Shown here piece by piece: positions 7,212 to 7,850 of a stretch of 64,000 nucleotides of DNA. A program made the translations under genes and the position numbers. The notes beneath the pieces were generated by a model. That model had not been told where the DNA came from. It worked only from the letters and a program-made list of their open reading frames with translations, and searched no databases. The stretch lies in NCBI RefSeq assembly GCF_003018115.1, contig NZ_CP027457.1. One strand, 5' to 3'. The first letter of the stretch is position 1; each line of letters opens with the position of its first letter. The DNA comes from Escherichia coli (GTDB taxonomy: Bacteria; Pseudomonadota; Gammaproteobacteria; Enterobacterales; Enterobacteriaceae).

Positions 7212-7388
7212 GTGAAACAAAGCGAGTTCAGACGTTGGCTCGAATCTCAGGGCGTCGATGTAGCGAATGGCAGCAACCATTTGAAAGTCAGGTTTCATGG
7301 GATGCGCAGTGTCATGCCGCGTCACCCCTGCGATGAGATTAAAGAACCATTGCGTAAAGCAATCCAGAAACAACTCGGTTTGAGTTAA
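7212..7388 (+). CDS. hicA: HicA mRNA interferase toxin (type II toxin-antitoxin)
   Basis: 58-aa ORF from a GTG start (VKQSEFRRWLESQGV...), absent from the track because it is under 60 aa; GGAGG Shine-Dalgarno 5 nt upstream; directly upstream of hicB. Confidence 0.75.
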   Translation: MKQSEFRRWLESQGVDVANGSNHLKVRFHGMRSVMPRHPCDEIKEPLRKAIQKQLGLS

Positions 7389-7433
7389 TCGCCAATTAAA
7401 AAGGTTAATGACATGCGAGAGACAGTCGAAATT

Positions 7434-7850
7434 ATGCGTTATCCCGTCACTCTTACACCCGCGCCGGAAGGCGGTTATATGGTTTCTTTTGTGGATATCC
7501 CTGAAGCGTTGACCCAGGGCGAAACTGTCGCTGAAGCGATGGAAGCGGCAAAAGATGCTTTACTGACCGCATTTGATTTTTATTTTGAAGATAACGAGCT
7601 TATCCCGTTACCTTCGCCATTAAATAGTCACGATCATTTTATTGAAGTACCTTTGAGCGTCGCCTCTAAGGTATTGCTGTTAAATGCTTTTTTACAGTCA
7701 GAAATCACTCAGCAAGAGTTAGCCAGGAGAATTGGCAAACCTAAACAGGAAATTACTCGTTTATTTAACTTGCACCATGCGACAAAAATCGACGCCGTCC
7801 AGCTCGCGGCTAAGGCGCTTGGCAAAGAGTTATCACTGGTGATGGTTTGA
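7434..7850 (+). CDS. hicB: HicB antitoxin
   Basis: ORF 7413..7850; start placed at the internal ATG (MRYPVTLTPAPEGGY..., 138 aa); C-terminal DNA-binding-like region. Confidence 0.8.
   Translation: MRYPVTLTPAPEGGYMVSFVDIPEALTQGETVAEAMEAAKDALLTAFDFYFEDNELIPLPSPLNSHDHFIEVPLSVASKVLLLNAFLQSEITQQELARRIGKPKQEITRLFNLHHATKIDAVQLAAKALGKELSLVMV

Follow-up and report, generated by a model that had tools for sequence, protein, structure and literature searches.

A K-12-type hicAB operon with a conserved GTG toxin start and a rare HicA allele in Escherichia coli

Introduction

Does the short reading frame that lies just ahead of a hicB gene in this Escherichia coli sequence encode a HicA toxin, does its translation begin at a GTG codon, and can its product be assumed to act like the K-12 protein? 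The sequence in question is a window of 64,000 nucleotides, by which we mean the whole stretch of DNA analysed; an initial annotation, made from the letters alone, had placed at 7212-7850 a hicAB toxin-antitoxin pair with a 58-residue, GTG-initiated toxin. In E. coli K-12, according to reviews, HicA is an RNase with a dsRBD-like fold that cleaves mRNA independently of translation, causes growth arrest and is neutralised by HicB; reviews also give His23 as the catalytic residue of the E. coli enzyme. The K-12 operon is described, in reviews of the work of Turnbull & Gerdes (2017), as having two promoters, of which P1 carries a CRP-S site, depends on Sxy/CRP and yields both proteins, and P2, derepressed when HicA is in excess, gives only HicB. 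In what follows, protein identity, synteny, domains, the presence of His23 and the arrangement of GTG, Shine-Dalgarno sequence and palindrome were computed; RNase activity, neutralisation and the two-promoter logic are taken from the literature.

Results

Identity and context of the locus

A six-frame listing of open reading frames with a 30-residue threshold returned two frames on the plus strand, a GTG-initiated frame of 58 codons at 7212-7388 and a frame of 145 codons at 7413-7850. The product of the first aligned over its full length with PDB 6HPB chain A, the 'mRNA interferase toxin HicA' of E. coli K-12 (55/58 residues, 95% identity, E = 3.3e-34), a match that puts the frame well outside chance expectation. 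The initial annotation had called for alignment to HicA and HicB proteins and had named a lack of HicA similarity as fatal to its proposal; the similarity was clear. The product of the second frame was identical to K-12 HicB at all 145 residues, with E values of 1.2e-86 to 4.5e-91 against HicB chains and 100% identity both to the 145-residue form in 6U0I_A and to the 138-residue form in 6HPB_B/6HPC.

Domain searches agreed with these assignments in most respects. HicB matched Pfam PF15919 (HicB_lk_antitox; 32.8 bits, cut-off 27) at residues 10-74 and PF01381 (HTH_3; 31.4 bits, cut-off 23) at residues 95-141, so that its two-domain architecture, with a DNA-binding domain of helix-turn-helix type following the PF15919 domain, is present. 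HicA has the family's single domain and, at 58 residues, lies within its size range of 50-100 residues, and it keeps the catalytic His23. Its match to Pfam HicA_toxin (PF07927) covered residues 5-57 and scored 24.8 bits (E = 2.3e-5; gathering cut-off 27). Searches with NCBIfam and PADLOC models gave no HicA match and only weak PADLOC matches to HicB, and the Rfam search returned nothing in or near the hicAB locus. The layout is toxin-first, with hicA directly upstream of hicB on the same strand. Counted from the 138-codon hicB (7434-7850), the spacer at 7389-7433 measures 45 nt; it holds an in-frame alternative hicB start, ATG 7413, from which it measures 24 nt. Terminator prediction between the two genes found none.

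The surroundings were those of the K-12 locus. A 941-nt query spanning 6990-7930 matched 5,415 of 5,426 complete E. coli genomes, and the features beneath the full-length matches were yncJ, hicA, hicB and ydcR in each. Over these 941 nt the DNA is 98-99% identical to that of K-12, with the start region AGGGAGGCGATGTGAAACAA unchanged. The gene order rlhA-yncJ-hicA-hicB-ydcR-ydcS is common to K-12 and strain F9792, which is 99.9% identical to the window, and RefSeq annotation of F9792 and of K-12 MG1655 places hicA at the equivalent of 7212-7388 and hicB at that of 7434-7850. Because protein identity, synteny, RefSeq coordinates and the K-12 alignment agree, we take the window to be E. coli chromosome bearing a K-12-type hicAB operon, and 7212-7850 is almost certainly the chromosomal type II toxin-antitoxin operon orthologous to K-12 b4532/b1438. 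A hicAB pair with a 58-residue GTG-initiated toxin, as first proposed, is thus confirmed by identity to K-12, by the yncJ and ydcR neighbours and by a RefSeq start on the same GTG. For genome annotation the operon matters little: it is a textbook type II module, already known and already annotated in RefSeq at matching coordinates.

Two open reading frames overlapping hicA, one at 7172-7336 on the plus strand (54 residues, ATG) and one at 7176-7373 on the minus strand (65 residues), were rejected as genes, having no Pfam match and being out of frame with the 95%-identical known gene.

Two observations were made elsewhere in the window. Upstream, the mechanical frame of rlhA (ydcP; 4665-6668, plus strand) runs from GTG 4665 and encodes 667 residues, and RefSeq has 653 residues from 4707, which is an ordinary start-site difference. 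At 61652-61710 (plus strand) Rfam identified a SECIS_3 selenocysteine insertion element (84.3 bits, E = 1.4e-18), presumably inside a formate dehydrogenase selenoprotein gene.

The HicA allele of the window

Compared with K-12, the window hicA carries three codon differences, all of them nonsynonymous (L26V, R31M and L52Q) and none synonymous, whereas hicB carries ten, all of them silent, one being a change of the stop codon from TAA to TGA. Across yncJ, ydcR, rlhA and hicB together the differences number 7 nonsynonymous and 51 synonymous (Fisher p = 0.003 against the 3:0 of hicA), although a reliable dN/dS cannot be had from three changes. In a census of 102 distinct ungapped HicA homologues, V26, M31 and Q52 each occurred in none, at positions that are nearly invariant, with L at residue 26 in 99 homologues, K or R at residue 31 in 88, and L, I or M at residue 52 in 99. 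Of the 102 homologues, 101 have His23, as does the window, and in our alignment A2 it is invariant. The Pfam HicA_toxin score falls from 30.9 bits for the K-12 allele to the sub-threshold 24.8 bits of the window allele; a purely Pfam-based gene caller would therefore drop this HicA on account of its substitutions, not of its GTG start. The allele (WP_001612987.1) is rare, being found at 99% identity or more in about 11 of the 5,426 complete genomes, ETEC O169:H41 strains among them, and one sister strain adds a fourth replacement, F28C. Given three replacements unseen in 102 homologues, the activity of this HicA cannot be assumed equal to that of the K-12 toxin.

In other lineages hicA is frameshifted or deleted. 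About 811 of the 5,426 genomes have a 22-bp deletion between short TGCG repeats, which shifts the hicA frame after residue 40; such copies appear in annotation as a frameshifted 'mRNA interferase' pseudogene, and HicB remains intact. The deletion was compared at window 7212-7388 against 2501-2655 of locus L003, from strain EA7. In about 1,160 genomes a larger deletion of some 445 bp (window ~7170-7615, compared with L015 from strain Z1323HEC0355) takes out the whole of hicA together with the 5' part of hicB, and what remains between yncJ and ydcR is a fragment of hicB. A single HicB protein, WP_001270286.1, accompanies the K-12 allele, the window allele, its F28C derivative and the frameshifted pseudogene alike. 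As far as can be judged from sequence comparison, such a distribution would fit relaxed or negative selection on the activity of the toxin, with HicB conserved, though three substitutions cannot prove as much.

These observations raise the possibility, which we regard as somewhat unlikely, that the window toxin is already attenuated or is becoming inactive, with L26V, R31M and L52Q weakening folding, RNA binding or catalysis; what the locus would then chiefly provide is HicB by itself, as a regulator or an orphan antitoxin, paralleling the lineages with a frameshifted or deleted hicA. The skew of the codon differences, the unprecedented residues, the lower domain score, the further F28C change, the loss of hicA elsewhere and the one HicB beside differing hicA states all point in that direction. 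On the other hand, the reading frame, GTG, Shine-Dalgarno sequence and His23 are all intact, neither L to V nor R to M is drastic, and the hicA pattern fits adaptive change equally well, for example altered specificity or altered affinity for HicB.

The hicA start codon

The sequence at 7200-7215, cagggaggcgATGTGA, holds two overlapping candidate start codons. ATG 7210-7212 is directly followed by TGA 7213-7215, as the initial annotation had correctly read, and GTG 7212-7214 shares one base with the ATG. A Shine-Dalgarno sequence, GGGAGG at 7202-7207 (plus strand), stands 4 nt ahead of the GTG and has a conserved core. The hicA frame opens after TGA 7185-7187 and has no other ATG, GTG or TTG ahead of 7212; the next in-frame starts are a TTG at codon 24 and ATGs at codons 31 and 35, and initiation at any of these would cost the protein helix alpha1 and the catalytic His23. 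Since no in-frame start comes earlier and the later ones truncate the protein, a full-length HicA domain can be had from GTG 7212 alone. In K-12, as in each intact locus inspected, hicA is annotated by RefSeq from this very codon.

The absence of hicA from the first open reading frame track had been ascribed to its GTG start and its length together. The length suffices, since 58 residues fall below the lister's default of 60, and the GTG has no part in it, being a start that the lister accepts. Nor is the gene missed by current annotation pipelines, as the initial annotation had expected of those that require ATG: PGAP calls hicA routinely, and it is annotated in each intact-gene match listed. 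Full-length hicA DNA is present in about 3,442 of the 5,426 complete genomes.

Comparison of start regions gave support to the GTG that is independent of annotation habit. Ten loci from seven genera were compared, namely the window, K-12, two divergent E. coli alleles and one locus from each of six other genera (Citrobacter, Serratia, Photorhabdus, Yersinia, Cellvibrio and Salmonella). All ten have GTG at the aligned first codon of hicA and a GGAGG core 3-5 nt upstream of it, and this core is also conserved in phage-borne loci. A scan of IMG/VR phage contigs added 80 further loci (L016-L095), of which 69 differ from one another in DNA sequence; in these 69 the first hicA codon is GTG in 66 and ATG in 3, whereas adjacent codons vary synonymously (CAA/CAG 53:16, TTC/TTT 55:14). 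In 27 phage-borne loci a second in-frame GTG lies immediately upstream, and the proteins there could gain one residue. HicA homologues in the protein database are almost all of 57-58 residues and begin MKQSEFRRWL, an N-terminus conserved across Enterobacterales. That the GTG is kept while neighbouring codons vary indicates that in this HicA clade it is old and has been maintained, and is not an annotation artefact. The weak start codon, the Shine-Dalgarno sequence and the operator described below travel together across genera and phages.

The overlapping ATG-TGA at 7210-7215 (plus strand) was seen in all four Escherichia loci, in none of the six other genera and in none of the 69 distinct phage-borne loci; lacking conservation outside Escherichia, it was rejected as a functional start-stop element, and by this comparison it is probably incidental. 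It is accordingly very improbable that translation is governed by a start-stop at ATG 7210, or that HicA is made from a downstream codon, for although the ATG precedes TGA, overlaps the GTG and shares with it a nearby Shine-Dalgarno sequence, it lies only 2 nt from that sequence and is dispensed with where the GTG is retained, and a downstream start is at odds with the helix and His23 that it would remove, with a Pfam match beginning at residue 5, with homologues that keep their N-terminus from residue 1, and with the crystallised 58-residue HicA, which begins at the position encoded by GTG 7212.

The hicB start

RefSeq starts hicB at ATG 7434 (138 residues, MRYPV...) rather than at ATG 7413 (145 residues), a choice that leaves the 7212-7850 span unchanged. 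The 7434-type start, with MRYPV, is found in each homologue outside Escherichia and Citrobacter; ATG 7413, which lies 21 nt upstream and in frame, is kept only in these two genera. ATG 7413 is preceded at 8 nt by AAAGG (7400-7404), with (A)AGG across both genera, whereas ATG 7434 has no obvious Shine-Dalgarno sequence. The seven extra codons vary in the amino acids that they encode: strain EA7 has E3G, strain 64.1 (L004) has E6K, and Citrobacter has AFT in place of ETV. Both lengths are represented in the PDB, 145 residues in 6U0I and 138 in 6HPB. The hicB start is therefore ambiguous, with better Shine-Dalgarno spacing favouring 7413 and RefSeq and most homologues favouring 7434.

Operator, promoters and leader

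A repeat search found a perfect inverted repeat, GTAAACA-N4-TGTTTAC, at 7162-7179. All ten loci compared have an equivalent palindrome some 50 nt ahead of the GTG, and in Citrobacter it shows a two-sided compensatory change, GTAAGCA-N4-TGCTTAC. Among the 69 distinct phage-borne loci, 47 have a palindrome of the strict pattern at -49 to -51, and in most phage-borne loci the palindrome recurs some 33 nt farther upstream. On the strength of this conservation, the palindrome is likely to be hicO, the predicted operator for the HTH dimer of HicB.

Promoter positions could be narrowed to different extents. Compared with K-12, the 222 nt preceding hicA show two differences, at 7005 and 7126, and by this identity the Sxy/CRP-dependent P1 should lie in the yncJ-hicA intergenic region upstream of the operator (6991-7161, plus strand). 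A scan of the upstream region for the CRP-S consensus gave at best 7 of 10 matches, at 7056-7073, and did not place the exact site; a consensus sigma-70 scan upstream of hicA found no promoter and so recovered neither P1 nor P2. In Cameron & Redfield (2006) the hicAB locus is not mentioned. Reading the sequence directly, we noted an extended -10-like element, TGaTATACT, at 7185-7193 (plus strand), which we infer to be a candidate for the HicB-repressed P2 and which the consensus scan did not pick up. A transcript begun about 7 nt past this element would have its 5' end near 7200, bordering on the hicA Shine-Dalgarno sequence (7202-7207). This arrangement is in line with what has been published on K-12.

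Two possible leader elements were rejected. RNA of 7150-7260 folded no better than shuffled sequences (z = -0.65), with the operator palindrome as its only stable hairpin, which speaks against a leader structure controlling hicA translation; a 7-nt repeat at 7179-7185 and 7216-7222 was not kept in other genera. Beyond the operon, an inverted repeat at 7866-7885, AGTTGT-N8-ACAACT, was noted in the gap that separates hicB from ydcR, where two promoter-like sites (7868-7895 and 7877-7905) overlap it. It may be an operator for YdcR, a regulator of GntR/MocR type.

Discussion

By analogy with K-12, the operon would encode a 58-residue mRNA-cleaving RNase and its antitoxin. The upstream Sxy/CRP promoter would give an mRNA for both HicA and HicB, and the operator-controlled proximal promoter a shorter mRNA for HicB only; by way of this HicB-only mRNA, excess toxin would trigger synthesis of antitoxin. 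The conserved GTG could add to such control, since it is plausibly a weak start codon that holds toxin translation below that of the antitoxin in a toxin-first operon. One possible reading of its near-universal presence is that it acts as a selected translational throttle on HicA.

The distribution of hicA and hicB among E. coli genomes also allows a more tentative proposal, drawn from comparative genomics and in our estimation more doubtful than probable: the chromosomal hicA may have been disabled repeatedly, by the 22-bp deletion, by the ~445-bp deletion and, in the window, by missense attenuation, and hicB kept for some separate role, whether in regulation or as an antidote against phage-borne HicA homologues. 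A rare allele, taken together with independent loss of hicA and retention of HicB, makes this locus a cheap test case for the decay of a chromosomal toxin and the persistence of its antitoxin.

Among known systems, the hicAB operon of K-12 (b4532/b1438; structures 6HPB, 6HPC and 6U0I) is like that of the window in its yncJ-ydcR site, gene order, gene lengths and GTG start, and has an identical Shine-Dalgarno sequence, operator palindrome and HicB protein. It differs by the three HicA replacements, the ten silent hicB changes and the upstream SNPs at 7005 and 7126.

The closest hicAB modules outside Escherichia sit in prophages (Serratia, L007; Yersinia, L009; Salmonella, L011) and phage contigs (the IMG/VR loci). 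Prophage-borne hicAB of Salmonella, Yersinia, Serratia, Photorhabdus and the IMG/VR contigs encodes HicA proteins of 57-58 residues with 62-81% identity, and shares the GTG start, the GGAGG Shine-Dalgarno sequence, the palindrome about 50 nt upstream and a HicB beginning MRYPV. In Yersinia and Salmonella the module belongs to a late-gene region, with holin and lysozyme genes lying just downstream of it, and in Yersinia it comes after antiterminator Q; in Serratia it stands behind a terminase gene. Unlike the E. coli chromosomal locus, prophage-borne modules usually have the operator palindrome twice in tandem, and directly after the hicA stop codon, where the chromosomal locus has no such element, they form a GC-rich hairpin (e.g. 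CCAGCCCTCCGGGGCTGG). An intra-operon terminator is reported for plasmid hicAB (PMC11878559), and the prophage hairpin may be related to it.

More distant parallels are offered by mqsRA and by toxTA of Haemophilus influenzae. Their toxins are RelE/HigB-like, with folds unrelated to those of the hicAB proteins and no sequence similarity to them, but the organisation is alike: the toxin gene comes first and, as reviews describe, a second, antitoxin-controlled promoter serves the antitoxin only. Reviews add that toxTA is also, like hicAB, under CRP-S/Sxy control.
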